Both the position numbers and the translations under genes were made by a program. DNA of 32,000 nucleotides from positions 231,432 through 263,431 of the forward strand of contig JAVZZH010000001.1 in the NCBI GenBank assembly GCA_038885755.1, given 5' to 3'. Numbering within the stretch: the first letter of the stretch is position 1; every line of letters begins with the position of its first letter. A model generated the notes under the pieces. The model saw nothing but the letters and a program-made list of their open reading frames with translations, was not told the origin of the DNA and ran no database searches. Source of the DNA: Candidatus Caldarchaeum sp. GTDB taxonomy: Archaea > Thermoproteota > Nitrososphaeria_A > Caldarchaeales > Caldarchaeaceae. This document shows, piece by piece, positions 4,021 through 22,409 of this stretch.

Positions 4021-4377
4021 TCACAGCCTCTGGGGAAGGTCCTTAAGGCTGAGGGCTGCGAAGATGGATGAAGCGCTCAGCACTCCAAGCAGGAGCACGA
4101 GGTTGAAGGCGTACTGTGGATTATCTATGATTGCTAGGGCTGAGATGAAGACGGCTATCGAGAGGACGGCGTAAGCCACGTAGATGATGGCGTAGGGGAA
4201 GTATTCTACGGGGAAGGAGGTTTCAGCCCACTCGAAAGGAACCTGACCGCTTTCGAACGAAAGCCTCTTCCTCCTCGTCCCCCTGCTCGACGAGAGGAGC
4301 TTGTTGGCCAGAAGAAGTATCAGGGGAAGCGCCGCCGTCAAAACCGTGTAGTAGATCAGCGCCTCGGTCTGCGACAT
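4021..4377 (-). CDS. nuoA: NADH:quinone oxidoreductase subunit A (NuoA/ND3)
   Basis: 118 aa with three hydrophobic helices and a FESGQVPF...FPVEYFPYAIIYV motif resembling the NuoA YECG...F loop. Lies 3 nt upstream of nuoH. Confidence 0.85.
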   Translation of the reverse strand: MSQTEALIYYTVLTAALPLILLLANKLLSSSRGTRRKRLSFESGQVPFEWAETSFPVEYFPYAIIYVAYAVLSIAVFISALAIIDNPQYAFNLVLLLGVLSASSIFAALSLKDLPQRL

Positions 4378-5883: not shown

Positions 5884-6573
5884 TTAAAGAACTGTCTTGC
5901 CGCAGTTGGGGCACGTACCGTTAATGTTTACGTATGCCTCTGCGCACCCCTGATGAAACACGACCCCGCAGCTGCTGCATCTAACAGCGTTCTCGGCCGT
6001 GACGGTTGTGTAGCATATGGGGCAGACCGTTTCATCCTCAACGTTTTCAACCCTCTCCAAGCTGGTCTCCTCCGGAACCGACGAACTCGTCAACGGCTCC
6101 TGCTCCCCGTAGTACTGGGGATACGGAACCTCGACCCTCTGCGGCCTCGTCAGGACAACCACGAGCCCCAAAGCCATCAGAACCACGGCCGTGAACAGAG
6201 CTGCGAAGAAGCCTAGGTCAGGTTCTCCGGAGACGTTGAGCCTCGGCAGCGCAACCATGCTGAGGTACACGGGTGAAAGCAAGGCGAGGACGCCTCCTAG
6301 AATCGAGAAAGCCGCTAGGATGATTCTCACCGTCCCAGCCCGCGACGAGAAGGATGTGGCGAGAAGCGAGAGGCCTGCGAGCATTCCGCCGGCTACTGAA
6401 AACATCAGGGTCTCGGTCAACAGATAACCGCTCAGAAGGCTTCTGGAAACAGTGTCAGCCCTTACCACGTACCAAGGCAGCAGAAGAGTAAGGATGTGCA
6501 TGCTCCCAACTAGCGCAAGCAAGGAGCCGAGCTTGAAAAACCTTACCAAAAGCCGTTGCTCGGAGACTATCAT
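5884..6573 (-). CDS. Membrane-anchored protein with a C-terminal C4HC3 RING-type zinc finger (candidate membrane E3 ligase)
   Basis: About four N-terminal hydrophobic helices are followed by an acidic linker and then CPIC-x11-CSSC-x4-H-x2-C-x10-CPNC. This spacing is identical to the small finger protein at 7846..8076. Confidence 0.8.
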   Translation of the reverse strand: MIVSEQRLLVRFFKLGSLLALVGSMHILTLLLPWYVVRADTVSRSLLSGYLLTETLMFSVAGGMLAGLSLLATSFSSRAGTVRIILAAFSILGGVLALLSPVYLSMVALPRLNVSGEPDLGFFAALFTAVVLMALGLVVVLTRPQRVEVPYPQYYGEQEPLTSSSVPEETSLERVENVEDETVCPICYTTVTAENAVRCSSCGVVFHQGCAEAYVNINGTCPNCGKTVL

Positions 6574-6702: not shown

Positions 6703-7536
6703 ATGGGCCTGCTTTCCAAGCGCGGCGACAACATGGTCGACCTCCGTAAAGAGGTTGCCGCTTTAAGGGTGCAGTTAATCGACAGGATGGAGGAGAGAAT
6801 AGGCCTTGTCGAGGAGGCTTTGTCGAAGCTCAAGGAGGATGTTAGGCTCGTCCTAGACCAGTTTTCGGCTCCACACAAGATAATGGTAAACATGCAGGAG
6901 ATCCTTGCACGTGGAGCTGTCCTCAACGAGACTCTCGACGAGTTCAAGGCGGCTACAGAGGAGCTGAAGGCTATGCGCAACAGCGTGCAGGAGATGACTG
7001 AAGCCTTGATGAGGGAGAGGGAGCAGCTTGCGAAGGAGATGCAGAGGTATAAGGCTGAGAGAGACGGTTTGAACGCCTTGAGGGAGGAGGTTTCCAGATG
7101 GAGGGCCGAGCTTGAGCAGAAAGAGCGTCAGATCGCAGAGGCTCAGGAGACGCTTAAAACTCTTCTGAGGAAGAAGGAGAGCTTGGAGGAGGAGGTCCGG
7201 ATGCTGAGCGATAGATACTTGACTTCTTTCGATGATGCTCAGAAGAAGCTCGAGGCATACGGGAGGGAGATGGACAAGATGTTCAAACTGAGGGAGATCA
7301 GGATGGAGAGGTTGATTCGTAGGGAGAAAGAGCTCGAGGACAGACTGGCTGCGTTGGAAAACAGCAAGTCAGAGGCTGAGAAGCTTATTGCTTTCGCTAA
7401 TAAGCTGAAGGAGGAGGTGAGCAAGCTGGAAGCCTACAAGGAATCGCTGTCAAACGAGATATCTCAGATGGAGAAGAGGAGGGCTGAGCTGAACGAGCTG
7501 ATAACTGAGATGAGGCGGGCATTCCTCACTTCATAA
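6703..7536 (+). CDS. Long coiled-coil protein (277 aa), function unknown
   Basis: E/K/R/L-rich heptad-like sequence runs throughout. A TATA-like TTTATAA at 6673-6679 lies about 27 nt upstream of the ATG. Confidence 0.75.
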   Translation: MGLLSKRGDNMVDLRKEVAALRVQLIDRMEERIGLVEEALSKLKEDVRLVLDQFSAPHKIMVNMQEILARGAVLNETLDEFKAATEELKAMRNSVQEMTEALMREREQLAKEMQRYKAERDGLNALREEVSRWRAELEQKERQIAEAQETLKTLLRKKESLEEEVRMLSDRYLTSFDDAQKKLEAYGREMDKMFKLREIRMERLIRREKELEDRLAALENSKSEAEKLIAFANKLKEEVSKLEAYKESLSNEISQMEKRRAELNELITEMRRAFLTS

Positions 7537-7842
7537 CTTCAGAGCCTTCTTTATCTGAGCAACTGTCGCAGACAACTCTCCCAACGCGTTTAGAACATCT
7601 CTCATGTCGTCTGCAAGAATAGTGAGCTGGTCCTCGATATCCCTCAACTTCTTCTCGAAGCCTTCGGGAGGTTTTTCCTCTCTCTGCAGCGAGTTGATTT
7701 TGGCGTTGACTTTTTCGATTTCCTCGAAAACCTCGACAAGTAGCTCAGCTAGCTGCTTGACTCCCTCAAACCGTGCAACAGGCCCCTTCGGCGTCTCCAG
7801 AAAGTCCAGTTCTACCACCTTCTCGTTTTTCTCCTCCGACAT
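7531..7842 (-). CDS. Small acidic helical protein (103 aa), last gene of the ubiquitin-like operon
   Basis: The ATG lies 3 nt after the RING-finger gene stop and is preceded by GGAGGAGTGA (Shine-Dalgarno-like). I recognise no family. Confidence 0.7.
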   Translation of the reverse strand: MSEEKNEKVVELDFLETPKGPVARFEGVKQLAELLVEVFEEIEKVNAKINSLQREEKPPEGFEKKLRDIEDQLTILADDMRDVLNALGELSATVAQIKKALKL

Positions 7843-7845
7843 CGC

Positions 7846-8076
7846 TCACTCCTCCACGATCGTTCTCCGGCAGAGGGGGCAGGTCTTCCTGATAAGCAGC
7901 CAGTCGTCGAAGCACGTCATATGACCTACAGCCCCGCAGTGAGGACAGCTGTAGATTTTGTCGTTCGACAGCTCCAGCCCACAGATTACACACAGGCCTG
8001 TCCTCTCCTTCTTCTCAGACACGGCTTCGAACGGGTTCCAGAAGCCCGCGTTAACTTCCTTGACCACTATCTTCAA
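7846..8076 (-). CDS. Small RING-type zinc finger protein (candidate E3 ligase)
   Basis: 76 aa with C29-x2-C32-x11-C44-x2-C47-x4-H52-x2-C55-x10-C66-x2-C69 (cross-brace C4HC3 pattern). The TTG start at 8076 (alternative GTG at 8067) overlaps the E1 3' end. Confidence 0.85.
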   Translation of the reverse strand: MKIVVKEVNAGFWNPFEAVSEKKERTGLCVICGLELSNDKIYSCPHCGAVGHMTCFDDWLLIRKTCPLCRRTIVEE

Positions 8077-9241
8077 CGAGCCTCACCCTTACAGAGAGTG
8101 GAGCAGCCCTCCTGCTCGTGTGGACGAAGACCACGTCCCCGTCTTTCAGCCCCGAGCCTATCAAGGTTTCGGATTCGTTTATCAGCCGGGTTCCGTGCTG
8201 GAGCTGGACGTCCGGGAACATAAACTTGCTGGATATTCTCTCCAAGAAATCGACTACTCTTTCGTGAGGATGTGCGGTCATCTCGACTGGTTTATCGCTG
8301 TCAGACCCGCATACATGGCAGAGCTCGTTCCTAGCAAGCCTGACCCTAGAGACACGGCCGTTCAGCCCGTCGTAAACGAGCAGCCCGCTCAAAGACCTTC
8401 CCAAAGAGCCGTCGTGCAGAACTCTAACGACTTCGAAGACGCCTAGGCCGGCTACTGTTGCGGATATGCTTAGAACGGCTGGAATCTTCGGGTTGAGCAG
8501 ACTACGTAAACGGTTGACGAGGTTTTTGAGCTCTGGACTCAGCCCGTCGACAACCTTCTGAGGGGCGTATTTTATGTCGTAGAGCGTCTTGATGTTGTGG
8601 TTGAAAAGCTCAGCCGCCTCATCCAACCCCACTGCTATGCCTCTGTCCCTGAGCTCGGAGACGAGGTCTTCAGGCTTCCTCCGCCTCAGAGAGCATTCAG
8701 CTGCCTGAACCTCCAAAGGGATCAGGGCCTCCGCATGACACTCGATACAAGCCGTCTGTCGCGGGATTATCGTCTGAACGTTCCCGTAGTATCCGTCGGT
8801 CGCTAGGTCGACTAAAGGCTTGCCCAGCTCCACGGCCATAGAGTTAATCCATCGCCTAGTCGGCCAGTTGTCTACACAGCTGACCAGCACGTCGAACTCA
8901 GAGAAGACATCCTCACCTATGTTCCTTACATCCTTGTGCATCCCAACAACGTGCACTAGAGGGTTCATGCGTCTAACCCGCTGCTCCGCAAGCTCCGCCT
9001 TCGGCTTTCCTATATCCTCGTCGACGTAAAGCATCTGCCTGCTTAGGTTGGAGAGCTCAACGACGTCGTTGTCGACTAGAAGCAGTTCGCCCACGCCCAT
9101 CAACGCTAGGTTCTTAGCCGCTTCACATCCAAGAGCGCCGACTCCAGCGACCAGCACACGGGCTGACGCCAGCCTGCGCTGGTCCCAGCCCTCAAGCATT
9201 AGTTGTCTGTCGTACCGTGCTAGTGCTGAGCCTGCATCCAA
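8051..9241 (-). CDS. E1-like ubiquitin-activating enzyme (ThiF/MoeB/UBA family) with an extra C-terminal domain
   Basis: Contains RYDRQLML...VLVAGVGALGCEAAKNLALMGVGELLLVDNDVVELSNLSRQ (adenylation Rossmann fold). Paired CIEC and CHVC zinc motifs are present. A C-terminal tail of about 90 aa includes GLKDGDVVFV, which looks beta-grasp-like. Start is TTG. Confidence 0.92.
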   Translation of the reverse strand: MDAGSALARYDRQLMLEGWDQRRLASARVLVAGVGALGCEAAKNLALMGVGELLLVDNDVVELSNLSRQMLYVDEDIGKPKAELAEQRVRRMNPLVHVVGMHKDVRNIGEDVFSEFDVLVSCVDNWPTRRWINSMAVELGKPLVDLATDGYYGNVQTIIPRQTACIECHAEALIPLEVQAAECSLRRRKPEDLVSELRDRGIAVGLDEAAELFNHNIKTLYDIKYAPQKVVDGLSPELKNLVNRLRSLLNPKIPAVLSISATVAGLGVFEVVRVLHDGSLGRSLSGLLVYDGLNGRVSRVRLARNELCHVCGSDSDKPVEMTAHPHERVVDFLERISSKFMFPDVQLQHGTRLINESETLIGSGLKDGDVVFVHTSRRAAPLSVRVRLVEDSGQGS

Positions 9242-9242
9242 C

Positions 9243-9749
9243 CTAGAGACCCTTTCTCCTGCCCAGCTTAAAAGCTTCCTCCGGAGAGGCGTAGACCTCT
9301 AAAAACTGTCTCACCCGGGCCATGAAGAGGTCGGGCCTGTTTTTGTACTCGAAGGCAGCGATGGGGTTTAGCGGGTCTTCGGGGTTGGGGTTGTTCAGCA
9401 GGTTTCTGAGAGCCTCTATGACGGCGACTATTCTGAGGGAGGGCGACCAGTGGTCCTTGAAGACAGACTCGCAGACGCGAGCCGGAACTGTGTCTGAGAA
9501 GTTTGGATGCCATATTCTTGTGTGCCAAACTATGTCGGGCGGGAAGTAGGGGTACGAGCGCGGTATAAGGATCTCGACCCTGAAGTATCCGCCCTCGTAA
9601 ATGTTTGTCCCGATTATCACGCCCTCGTAGTGTGTAAGGTCGTTCTCGACCGGGCTGAACGTCGGTTCATTTTCCTGGATGAGCGAATACTCGAGCGCCA
9701 GCCTCCTGTGCCATGCGCTCTCAGGCAGCTCAGCGTAAACGTTCTCCAT
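9243..9749 (-). CDS. E2 ubiquitin-conjugating enzyme (UBC fold)
   Basis: Contains IWHPNF (the HPN motif) followed by PARVCESVFKDHWSPSLRI, which matches the catalytic-Cys context of the canonical ICLDIL..WSP. The 168-aa length is typical. Confidence 0.92.
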   Translation of the reverse strand: MENVYAELPESAWHRRLALEYSLIQENEPTFSPVENDLTHYEGVIIGTNIYEGGYFRVEILIPRSYPYFPPDIVWHTRIWHPNFSDTVPARVCESVFKDHWSPSLRIVAVIEALRNLLNNPNPEDPLNPIAAFEYKNRPDLFMARVRQFLEVYASPEEAFKLGRRKGL

Positions 9750-9984
9750 TTCCCCCCACCGTACGGGTGATGAGGACGAACTTATCCCCGTCGGCGACGC
9801 CTAGGCTCTGAAGGGTCTCCGTGTCCTTCAACGCCCTTCCCTTGTATGTAAGCCTAGTTGTGTCTGGGGGGAGCTTCCTCATGGCGCATACCTTGGTCCT
9901 AACCGCTCCAATCGTTGCGTTCGGCGAAACCTCCAACTCTAAAGGGCTTCCTCCACCCACGGCAGGCACTATCTTTATCTTCAT
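9730..9984 (-). CDS. Ubiquitin-like beta-grasp modifier precursor (di-glycine followed by a 6-aa tail)
   Basis: MKIKIV...LEVSPNATIGAVRTKV...LPPDTTRLTYKGRALKDTETL...FVLITRTVGG-NGERLR aligns by eye along the full length of eukaryotic ubiquitin. GG is at aa 77-78 of 84. Confidence 0.9.
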   Translation of the reverse strand: MKIKIVPAVGGGSPLELEVSPNATIGAVRTKVCAMRKLPPDTTRLTYKGRALKDTETLQSLGVADGDKFVLITRTVGGNGERLR

Positions 9985-10008: not shown

Positions 10009-10018
10009 GTATATAAGG
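10009..10018 (-). promoter_or_regulatory. Candidate TATA box for the ubiquitin-like operon
   Basis: The minus strand reads CCTTATATAC. Its centre is about 29 nt upstream of the Ub-like ATG (9984), consistent with a leaderless or near-leaderless archaeal promoter. Confidence 0.45.
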
Positions 10019-10126: not shown

Positions 10127-10744
10127 TTGGAAGCGATGCGTGTAAGGATATACCCGCTAGCCCTAGCTAAGATTGTCAAGCATTCAACCACCTTCCTGAA
10201 CAAGGAGGTTGCCGGGCTGCTGGTGGGTAAGTCGGCGGGGAAGGTCCTCGAAGTGTGGGACGCCGTGACCGGGGAGCAGTACGGAACCGCCGCCTACGTC
10301 CATCTCGACGAGGCTGTGATGTCTCGTGTTGCGGAGCAGCTTTCTGAGGATGGTAAAGGCCTTTACATAGTGGGATGGTATCATTCACACCCCGGGTTGA
10401 CGGTTTTCCTATCTCCCACCGACATAGACACTCAGAAACGTTATCAGAGCATTTATCCCAAGGCCGTGGCCTTGGTGATAGACCCGTCCAAGTATGTCGA
10501 GACACGTAGGATCTCGTCGATCGACTTCAAAGTCTTCCAGATATCGAAGGAGGGGAAAGTGGTGTCCCTGCCCGTGTCTATAGGAGTTCAGAGGTCTAAG
10601 CTGCTGGAGAGCACTTTCCATGCTTTGAGCACTTTTGATGTGAGGCATCTACTCCAGCAGTCGGAGGGTATGACTGAGAGCGGTCCGCAAGCCGGTGAAG
10701 ACGGAAGCTTGCTGGGAAAAGCTAAAAAGCTGTTCGGAAGATGA
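10127..10744 (+). CDS. JAB1/MPN+ (JAMM) metalloprotease, Rpn11-like deubiquitinase / precursor-processing enzyme
   Basis: The JAMM motif is intact: EVAGLLVG (Glu) and GWYHSHPGLTVFLSPTDIDT (HxHx7Sx2D). The track start is TTG at 10127. The ATG at 10136 fits the TATA spacing better. Confidence 0.92.
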   Translation: MEAMRVRIYPLALAKIVKHSTTFLNKEVAGLLVGKSAGKVLEVWDAVTGEQYGTAAYVHLDEAVMSRVAEQLSEDGKGLYIVGWYHSHPGLTVFLSPTDIDTQKRYQSIYPKAVALVIDPSKYVETRRISSIDFKVFQISKEGKVVSLPVSIGVQRSKLLESTFHALSTFDVRHLLQQSEGMTESGPQAGEDGSLLGKAKKLFGR

Positions 10745-10757
10745 GGAGGGAGACGCG

Positions 10758-11531
10758 TTGCCTAAGAAAATCGTGCTGAAGATAAAGCATGAACAGCAGC
10801 AGGAGCAGCCGGAGGTCGAGCCAGCCCAGCAACAACCTATTGAGGTGCCGGCCGTCGCCGAGCCCGAGCCTGCACCACCTCAGCAAGCTCCTCAGCCGGG
10901 AGACCTTGAGGAAGCCCTGAAGCAGTACCAGGACTTGATGAAAGAGCTTGAGCTGATCAAGAACCTCGACAAGAACTTCATAGCCTACTGCGTAAAGCTC
11001 GAAGACCTTAGGCCTAACCTTATCAGGAGCATTCTGGGGCGTTTGTCGGAGAAGCGCAACGCTTTGCTGGAGAGATCTGCCGCGGTGCTGGAGAGTATGA
11101 AGGCTGTGCGGGATTCGTTGGGGTCGGAGTTTGCTGAGGTTGAGGAGGAGCTCATTTGGAGCAGCATAGAGCTCAACACGATGCAGCTAGAGGGCTCCAA
11201 GGCTGATGCTGCAAGGGTTGGTCTGAAAGAGGAGCTTGAGGCCAAAATACCCGAGCTCCGGAAGAAGCTCACCAACCTGAGGAACAGGCTGAAGATGGTC
11301 GAGGACGTTGTCAAGCAGCTGTCCGAACTTCCACGAAACATAGTCGAACTGACTACCAGCAAGGAGGACATAGCTAAGCTGTTTGAGGATGCAAAGAAGA
11401 GGTATATTCTGACGCATGGCCAGAGGGCGGAGGCTGTGCTTAGGGCCGAGATAGACAGGGTTGCCCAGCAGGAAGCCATTCCCAGAGAATACGCCACGCT
11501 GCTTGTCTGGAAGGCCTCGCTCCAGCGTTAA
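10758..11531 (+). CDS. Hypothetical helical protein with a Q/P/E-rich N-terminus, coupled to the JAMM gene
   Basis: The track ORF begins at GTG 10695 and overlaps the JAMM gene by 50 nt. I prefer TTG 10758, which lies 7 nt after a strong GAGGAGGG Shine-Dalgarno-like site spanning the JAMM stop. I recognise no family. Confidence 0.7.
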   Translation: MPKKIVLKIKHEQQQEQPEVEPAQQQPIEVPAVAEPEPAPPQQAPQPGDLEEALKQYQDLMKELELIKNLDKNFIAYCVKLEDLRPNLIRSILGRLSEKRNALLERSAAVLESMKAVRDSLGSEFAEVEEELIWSSIELNTMQLEGSKADAARVGLKEELEAKIPELRKKLTNLRNRLKMVEDVVKQLSELPRNIVELTTSKEDIAKLFEDAKKRYILTHGQRAEAVLRAEIDRVAQQEAIPREYATLLVWKASLQR

Positions 11532-22334: not shown

Positions 22335-22409
22335 CGGGCCCGGCGGGATTTGAACCCGCGGCCCCCGGGTTAAAAGCCCGGTGCTCTGTCCTGACTGAGC
22401 TACGGGCCC
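22335..22409 (-). tRNA. tRNA-Lys (anticodon UUU), 75 nt, no encoded CCA, no intron
   Basis: Manual cloverleaf fold. Acceptor stem GGGCCCG/CGGGCCC, D arm GCUC-loop-GAGC, anticodon stem CCGGG/CCCGG with loop CUUUUAA, T arm GCGGG-UUCAAAU-CCCGC, discriminator G. Confidence 0.93.

Follow-up and report, generated by a model that had tools for sequence, protein, structure and literature searches.

The tail of a Caldarchaeum pro-ubiquitin as a probable by-product of overlap with the E2 gene, and a likely Shine-Dalgarno core for E2 in the Thr75-Val76 codons

Introduction

Why is ubiquitin made with a tail that has to be removed in Candidatus Caldarchaeum, and what do the codons around its conjugation motif do for the E2 gene that begins inside that tail? 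We addressed this question for a locus of Candidatus Caldarchaeum sp. located in contig JAVZZH010000001.1; "the window" refers to the whole stretch of 32,000 nucleotides that was analysed.

Results

A new member of the C. subterraneum ubiquitin cluster

The locus is an orthologue of the Ub-E2-E1-RING/Rpn11 cluster of Ca. Caldarchaeum (Caldiarchaeum) subterraneum, Csub_C1473-C1477 (Nunoura et al., PMC3082918), and hence a new member of a well-studied system (PMC3082918, PMC5654768, PMC6043591; PDB 2MQJ, 6FJ7, 6FNN and 6FNO), for which the E1-E2-RING cascade has been demonstrated and the CsRpn11-CsUb structure solved. The pro-ubiquitin gene (9730-9984, minus strand; 84 aa) is the orthologue of CsUb (Csub_C1474). 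Its product matches the ubiquitin family (PF00240, E=1e-12) and the structures 2MQJ (E=2e-47), 6FJ7 and 6FNN; with these matches and its RTVGG end it is a eukaryote-like ubiquitin of the C. subterraneum type with a C-terminal di-glycine. The search with Ub returned identical proteins from Ca. Caldarchaeum sp. MAGs, and RTVGG is found without exception in 18 aligned orthologues and in all 75 genomes discussed below. Mature ubiquitin (residues 1-78, ending Thr-Val-Gly-Gly; 9751-9984, minus strand) is followed by the tail NGERLR, six codons and a TGA stop at 9732-9730 (9730-9750, minus strand), just as an earlier note on this DNA had read the end of the ORF (VGG, with Gly77-Gly78, then NGERLR). 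The same nucleotides encode, in another frame, the 5′ end of the E2 gene (MENVYAE).

The E2 conjugating enzyme (9243-9749, minus strand; 168 aa; UQ_con PF00179, E=4e-29) starts 1 nt after Gly78. It is followed on the same strand by an E1-like activating enzyme (8051-9241; 396 aa; ThiF PF00899, E=3e-59), the C-terminus of which gives a weak Ub-like match in relatives, and by a small E3-like RING finger protein, srfp (7846-8076; PF13639, E=1e-9). The gene for an Rpn11-like JAMM protease (10136-10744, plus strand; 202 aa; JAB PF01398, E=2e-20) is divergent from ub, and its JAMM motif is intact (E24, H83-x-H85, S93, D96; E...HxH-x7-S-x2-D). The operon ub-E2-E1-small RING with a divergent Rpn11-like gene has the layout reported in PMC3082918. 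In addition to gene order and orientation, the two clusters have in common the TVGG end, a short tail and an E2 start 1 nt after Gly78. Compared with the C. subterraneum-type proteins of a relative with a complete, single-contig genome (G011), Ub is 92-95% identical (92% over 84 aa), E2 82% and Rpn11 76% (153/201 residues); the tail of this relative is the published CGEPIRRAA. The clusters differ in the tail (6 aa, NGERLR, here vs. 9 aa, CGEPIRRAA, in C. subterraneum) and in the E2 start codon (ATG vs. GTG).

Rpn11 cuts the C. subterraneum precursor after Gly-Gly in vitro, as demonstrated by mass spectrometry (Hennell James et al., PMC5654768; Fuchs et al., PMC6043591), and E1 does not activate uncut pro-Ub (PMC5654768, PMC6043591). 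The precursor and its protease are thus already published and are not new. The suggestion of the earlier note that the adjacent JAMM protease trims the tail is supported by these data on the orthologue, by analogy with which Rpn11 would also cut the NGERLR precursor. In the CsUb precursor, Cys79Glu and Gly80Trp block cleavage by CsRpn11, and distal residues matter; Asn at P1′ (Asn79, as here) is not among the mutants described. Nunoura et al. (PMC3082918) noted that genes of the cluster partially overlap. A word search of the C. subterraneum papers returned no mention of the tail as an overlap with E2, and one of part of these papers no mention of Shine-Dalgarno (SD) sites.

A TATA-like box, TTATATA, lies at 10010-10016 (minus strand), 26-32 nt before the Ub ATG, and is kept in genera g1 and g2 of the window's family. 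The Ub start has an SD pairing energy of +1.1 kcal/mol, i.e. no SD. With the putative box at -32 to -26 and no SD, ub is probably translated leaderless. An Rfam scan of the window gave a tRNA gene (22335-22409, minus strand) as its sole match and no cis element at the ub-E2 junction.

Several further ORFs surround the operon. A second RING protein (5884-6573, minus strand; 229 aa) is encoded 1.3 kb downstream; its N-terminal hydrophobic segments are probably membrane-spanning, and it probably corresponds to the second E3 that Fuchs et al. (PMC6043591) refer to. Coiled-coil-like ORFs with no Pfam assignment flank the cluster at 6703-7536 (plus strand), 7531-7842 (minus strand) and 10695-11531 (plus strand). 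The one at 7531-7842 (103 aa) starts 3 nt after the RING gene behind a strong SD (-9.3), and is probably the operon's fifth gene.

The E2 start codon and the geometry of the junction

The codons GTG GGG GGA occupy 9759-9751, followed by an A at 9750 and the E2 ATG at 9749-9747, so that the two genes overlap by 20 nt. This agrees with the earlier note, which had set the Val-Gly-Gly codons immediately 5′ of this ATG; the intervening distance is 1 nt after Gly78. The ATG is the sole ATG, GTG, TTG or CTG in the open E2 frame, and in the window's family, 18 genomes from four genera, an NTG is kept at position +1 in 18/18 (8 ATG, 7 TTG and 3 GTG). Since it is the only candidate in frame and the NTG is kept throughout, the ATG at 9749 is very probably the real E2 start. 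The note had placed both the start codon and its G-rich upstream stretch inside the post-GG tail; the start codon does lie there, but the G-rich stretch is made of the mature Thr75-Gly78 codons.

An E2 start at +1 means that codon 79 ends in T and hence is not a stop, and a precursor is thereby forced by geometry. For the same reason Glu79 is impossible, while Gly80, present in 18/18 family members, arises from the G of the E2 start codon and a G-initial second E2 codon. A constraint of the junction on tail evolution, as had been suggested, is therefore real within the 18-genome family, where the +1 start bars a stop, but it does not extend beyond it.

Unusual start codons were also observed. 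In all 7 genomes of the Terraquivivens genus (G057-G063), E2 appears to start at a CTG, 7-8 nt after GG (loci L016, L017, L020, L021, L022 and L024, about 4242-4245, plus strand), and no SD elsewhere in the set is as strong as the one before it (-13 to -15 kcal/mol); the open E2 frame of G057 and G062 offers no other start candidate. The window's genome has 20 CTGA stop/start overlaps whose SD strength (median -6.2; 75% reach -5) resembles that of ATGA overlaps and differs from that of the non-start NTAA/NTAG controls. For several, among them a 132-aa ribosomal S9-like ORF on C1, there is no alternative start in the vicinity; some have an ATG close by. CTG starts may thus be used in this genome; the literature, incompletely covered, held nothing specific on CUG starts in these archaea.

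A likely Shine-Dalgarno core in the Thr75-Val76 codons

The likely SD core for E2 is GGTG at 9757-9760 (minus strand), i.e. -11 to -8, to which Thr75 (ACG) contributes its wobble base and Val76 (GTG) its whole codon. The G-run of the Gly77-Gly78 codons, GGG GGA, follows at 9751-9756 (minus strand). As the own assembly is 86.5% complete and is without a 16S rRNA, the anti-SD was taken from five relatives, in which the 16S 3′ end is canonical: GGAUCACCUCC. The E2 site is complementary to it, at -6.5 kcal/mol. This is about the median of 168 confident starts (43% are stronger) and weaker than the -10.3 in most relatives, and 10% of internal ATGs reach the same pairing energy; on the window's genome alone, the E2 site exceeds chance weakly. 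Before the 168 confident internal starts of the genome, GGTG peaks at -12/-11, and the E2 GGTG has this spacing (-11). The Gly G-run (-7 to -3) falls outside this peak, closer to the start.

The comparative signal is strong. Across 60 four-fold sites in Ub and E2, the family shows a mean of 6.0 parsimony changes, and 3 sites never change; two of these three frozen sites are Thr75 and Val76, with 0 synonymous changes in 18 genomes, while the wobble bases of Gly77 and Gly78 are free (5 and 6 parsimony changes). The codon pair ACG+GTG is universal (18/18) among genomes with E2 starting at +1, rare (2/37) among those whose E2 starts at +5 to +8, and missing (0/18) where E2 is distant. GGTG itself stands at -11 in all three start classes +1 (18/18), +5 (10/10, formed by Gly77 GGT plus G) and +8 (2/2, formed by Gly78 GGT plus G). 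With a +7 start, 15/24 scored genomes are without GGTG and have GGGGG/GGAGG-type pairing instead; among Gly-Gly codon pairs 5-7 nt before a start, 99% reach -5 kcal/mol or better. GGC at Gly77 occurs in 3/37 genomes with a near E2 vs. 8/18 with a far one. The genomes are related, and these counts amount to about four lineage-level contrasts rather than 75 independent points.

Both marks of an intragenic SD are found here: synonymous positions are conserved, and the site moves with the start codon. GGTG shifts with the start codon and so behaves as expected of an SD. From this conservation, the E2 SD core is likely the GGTG of the Thr75-Val76 codons; with an E2 start 5-8 nt behind GG, this role would pass to the Gly codons. 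The proposal of the earlier note that ubiquitin codons double as the E2 ribosome-binding site thus holds with respect to conservation and positional covariation, but its core falls in Thr75-Val76 and not in the Gly-Gly G-run.

The third frozen site is Gly11: all 18 family genomes encode it as GGA, with 0 changes against the mean of 6.0. Codons 11-12 form GGAGG at 9950-9954 (minus strand), 31 nt into a probably leaderless mRNA, an anti-SD-like sequence with no start codon behind it. An in-frame start at Leu15 was considered and rejected, this codon being TTA, CTC, TTG, CTT, CTA, CTG or ATT. In genera g5 and g7, Gly10 is frozen as GGT. Since Gly11 is as frozen as Thr75 and Val76, not every frozen wobble base need be part of an SD.

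Intragenic SD motifs are typical of overlapping prokaryotic gene pairs (Huber et al. 2019, PMC6728339; 2023, PMC10666635), and the ub-E2 pair resembles them in that the coding sequence of its first gene carries, near its 3′ end, a likely SD for the second. An overlap of 1 or 4 nt is typical of coupled pairs; that of ub and E2 measures 20 nt. In the E. coli pairs moaD-moaE (GGA GGT) and thiS-thiG (GGG GGT), the C-terminal Gly-Gly codons stand at the place of the next gene's SD and, judged from sequence, may act as such; in both pairs a stop follows GG, the next gene begins after a gap of 1 nt, and there is neither a tail nor a need for a protease. An SD within the final codons of the preceding gene is a generic, ordinary feature of tightly packed prokaryotic genes. 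The literature, incompletely covered, held nothing on Gly-Gly codons as SD and nothing on tail-less Caldarchaeales ubiquitins.

Tails vary across the Caldarchaeales, and Rpn11 is kept with or without them

The ub gene was retrieved from 75 of 76 genomes of the order, and each ub-E2 junction was inspected. Ubiquitin ends directly at GG in 35/75, which the earlier note had named as a finding that would count against its proposal. The other 40 carry tails of 1-20 aa, among which 35 distinct sequences were counted; 35 of these 40 tails extend into E2. Within Terraquivivens, the insertion or deletion of a single nucleotide between GG and the E2 start puts the tail into another frame (L016/L017 vs. 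L020/L021), with unrelated tails as the result. The alignment of orthologues that the note had called for thus shows tail length and sequence to be variable, while the GG/start overlap is kept within the 18-genome family. On a tree of Ub+E2, the tail state changes at least 5 times, and tailed clades are interspersed with tail-less states (g11, g15). Since a phylum-wide search of 301 genomes gave just two weak hits outside the order, no outgroup was available for rooting; the tree is rooted at its midpoint, which does not fix the direction of the earliest change. The tail is best read as a by-product of the overlap, being mostly the 5′ end of E2 translated out of frame.

Individual loci show further variation. 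One genome (G056, locus L084) has the tail PDRAC, with a proline at P1′, and an Rpn11 homologue on another contig; many proteases cut poorly at a P1′ proline. Another (G042, L111) has a second Ub-like gene, 65% identical, which ends TRTGG-AALLR and has no E2 nearby. Second Ub-like copies in G020-G022 and G038 (L129-L132) are 31-36% identical and end at GG.

The Rpn11 JAMM motif adjoins ub in most tail-less genomes. In genera g3, g4 and g6 (loci L068, L069, L072, L113-L115, L117-L119 and L128), Rpn11 is unlinked from the ub operon yet present elsewhere in the genomes, as found in 10/10 genomes searched for an unlinked copy; adjacency to ub is thus not required. The idea that tail-less lineages lose Rpn11, or that tailed ones are without it, was rejected, as Rpn11 is kept in both.

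Probably weak or no coupling between ub and E2

The earlier note had also proposed that the arrangement ties the stoichiometry of Ub and E2, i.e. that the Val-Gly-Gly G-run is the ribosome-binding site of E2 and that the overlap enforces tight coupling and so fixes the Ub:E2 ratio. There is something to be said for this: in H. volcanii, termination-reinitiation is supported by intragenic SD motifs where gene pairs overlap (PMC6728339), all 18 family genomes retain the +1 junction, and in lineages whose E2 starts at +5 to +8 the SD is indeed made of Gly codons. Furthermore, in the window's genome the SD core is predicted to base-pair with Ub sequence that precedes it (unpaired probability 0.01-0.05), and elongating ribosomes could open this pairing. 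Against it, the Gly wobble bases are free in the window's family, and the predicted SD-hiding hairpin is not significant (z-score -1.07). Among the 18 genomes, no conserved start-hiding structure was found; the pairing partners differ, and most sites are no more occluded than control GGTG sites, so that the hairpin was rejected as a coupling device. Coupling in E. coli is best at -4 to +3 nt and absent at -25 nt (PMC12548453), and termination-reinitiation falls faster with overlap than with gaps (PMC12548453; PMC10666635); the overlap is 20 nt here, outside that optimum, and 11-55 nt in other tailed relatives. Long overlaps are not special to ub-E2 either: srfp overlaps the end of the E1 gene by 26 nt and has its own intragenic SD (GGGTGAGG, -8.5 kcal/mol), and roughly 9% of SD-led neighbours in the window's genome overlap by at least 17 nt. 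Finally, E2 lies about 50-450 nt from ub, mostly with no strong SD, in 19 genomes (L099-L101, L102, L085-L089, L093-L098, L103, L105, L107, L082), in 16 of which ub ends directly at GG. A distant E2 that often has no SD suggests a promoter of its own. In G038 (L112), no E2 lies within 1 kb of ub. A modifier is needed in excess over its E2, and 1:1 coupling would bring no obvious benefit. Taken together, tight stoichiometric coupling is less likely than coupling that is weak or absent, and we regard the reading in which the G-run fixes the ratio as unlikely.

Two other readings concern the tail itself and the frozen codons. The tail could be a selected pro-peptide that keeps Ub inactive until the divergent Rpn11 licenses it, like eukaryotic pro-Ub, SUMO and NEDD8, and this would fit with uncleaved pro-Ub being refractory to E1, with tails in several lineages, with Gly80 in every family member, and with the complete absence from the 40 tails of Glu at P1′ or Trp at P2′, the residues that block CsRpn11. 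However, an extension is not present across orthologues, 47% of which are tail-less, including some inside tailed clades; where a tail exists, its sequence, length and frame vary. Moreover, Gly80 and the absence of Glu79 follow from the start-codon geometry, and selection for cleavability is likewise expected of a by-product. We therefore give a selected pro-peptide very little credence, the least of the readings considered here. Scarcely more probable is that the frozen ACG-GTG reflects chance or another constraint, such as RNA structure or a protein-binding site, and is not used in E2 initiation. In its favour, the equally frozen Gly11 is far from any start found, and removal of SD motifs in H. 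volcanii was never essential, with effects from small to 80% (PMC6728339). On the other hand, Thr75 and Val76 are two adjacent frozen sites, each with an empirical frequency of 1/56 (Poisson 0.002), at the genome's SD position, and the constraint vanishes and shifts to Gly codons when the start codon moves.

Discussion

We conclude, with good though not full confidence, that the locus is an ordinary orthologue of the Caldarchaeum ub operon, in which the tail is a by-product of gene overlap that is trimmed by Rpn11, and the SD of E2 lies in Thr75-Val76. According to this explanation, Ub would be made with a short C-terminal tail, translated out of frame from the first codons of E2 until a stop is reached, and free Rpn11, a JAMM protease, would cut after Gly78. 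The +1 start of E2 would put a T at the third place of codon 79, exclude a stop and so lock in the precursor, which would be tolerated because Rpn11 removes the tail; the origin of the tail may thus be neutral. E2, as an internal gene after a probably leaderless first gene, would be initiated from the GGTG at -11, either de novo or after Ub termination 20 nt downstream.

A further proposal, which we put forward tentatively and hold to be somewhat less probable than an even chance, is that archaeal pro-ubiquitin is the outcome of a ratchet of neutral origin, with maturation by Rpn11 obligatory in this family only. With free Rpn11 present, losing the stop behind Gly-Gly would have done no harm; the start of E2 would then have moved to 1 nt after GG, recruiting the Thr75-Val76 codons as SD. 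A stop after GG would now be impossible, and maturation by Rpn11 an obligation in the 18-genome family.

Neither the placement of the SD nor the origin of the tail as a by-product was found in the literature searched; both are small additions. The junction is a natural experiment in which an intragenic SD appears to slide from Thr-Val to Gly-Gly codons as the start moves, and the 35 natural tail variants map the tolerance of Rpn11 at P1′ and P2′. Nearly half of the order makes mature ubiquitin directly, yet keeps Rpn11; deconjugation, not maturation, is thus the likelier conserved job of this protease. Only a rooted analysis would justify treating the tail as an ancestral eukaryote-like trait. 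If true, the neutral ratchet would be a compact, testable model of how ubiquitin precursors can arise without selection for them, and archaeal pro-ubiquitin, cited as a eukaryote-like precursor trait, would be recast as neutral in origin.
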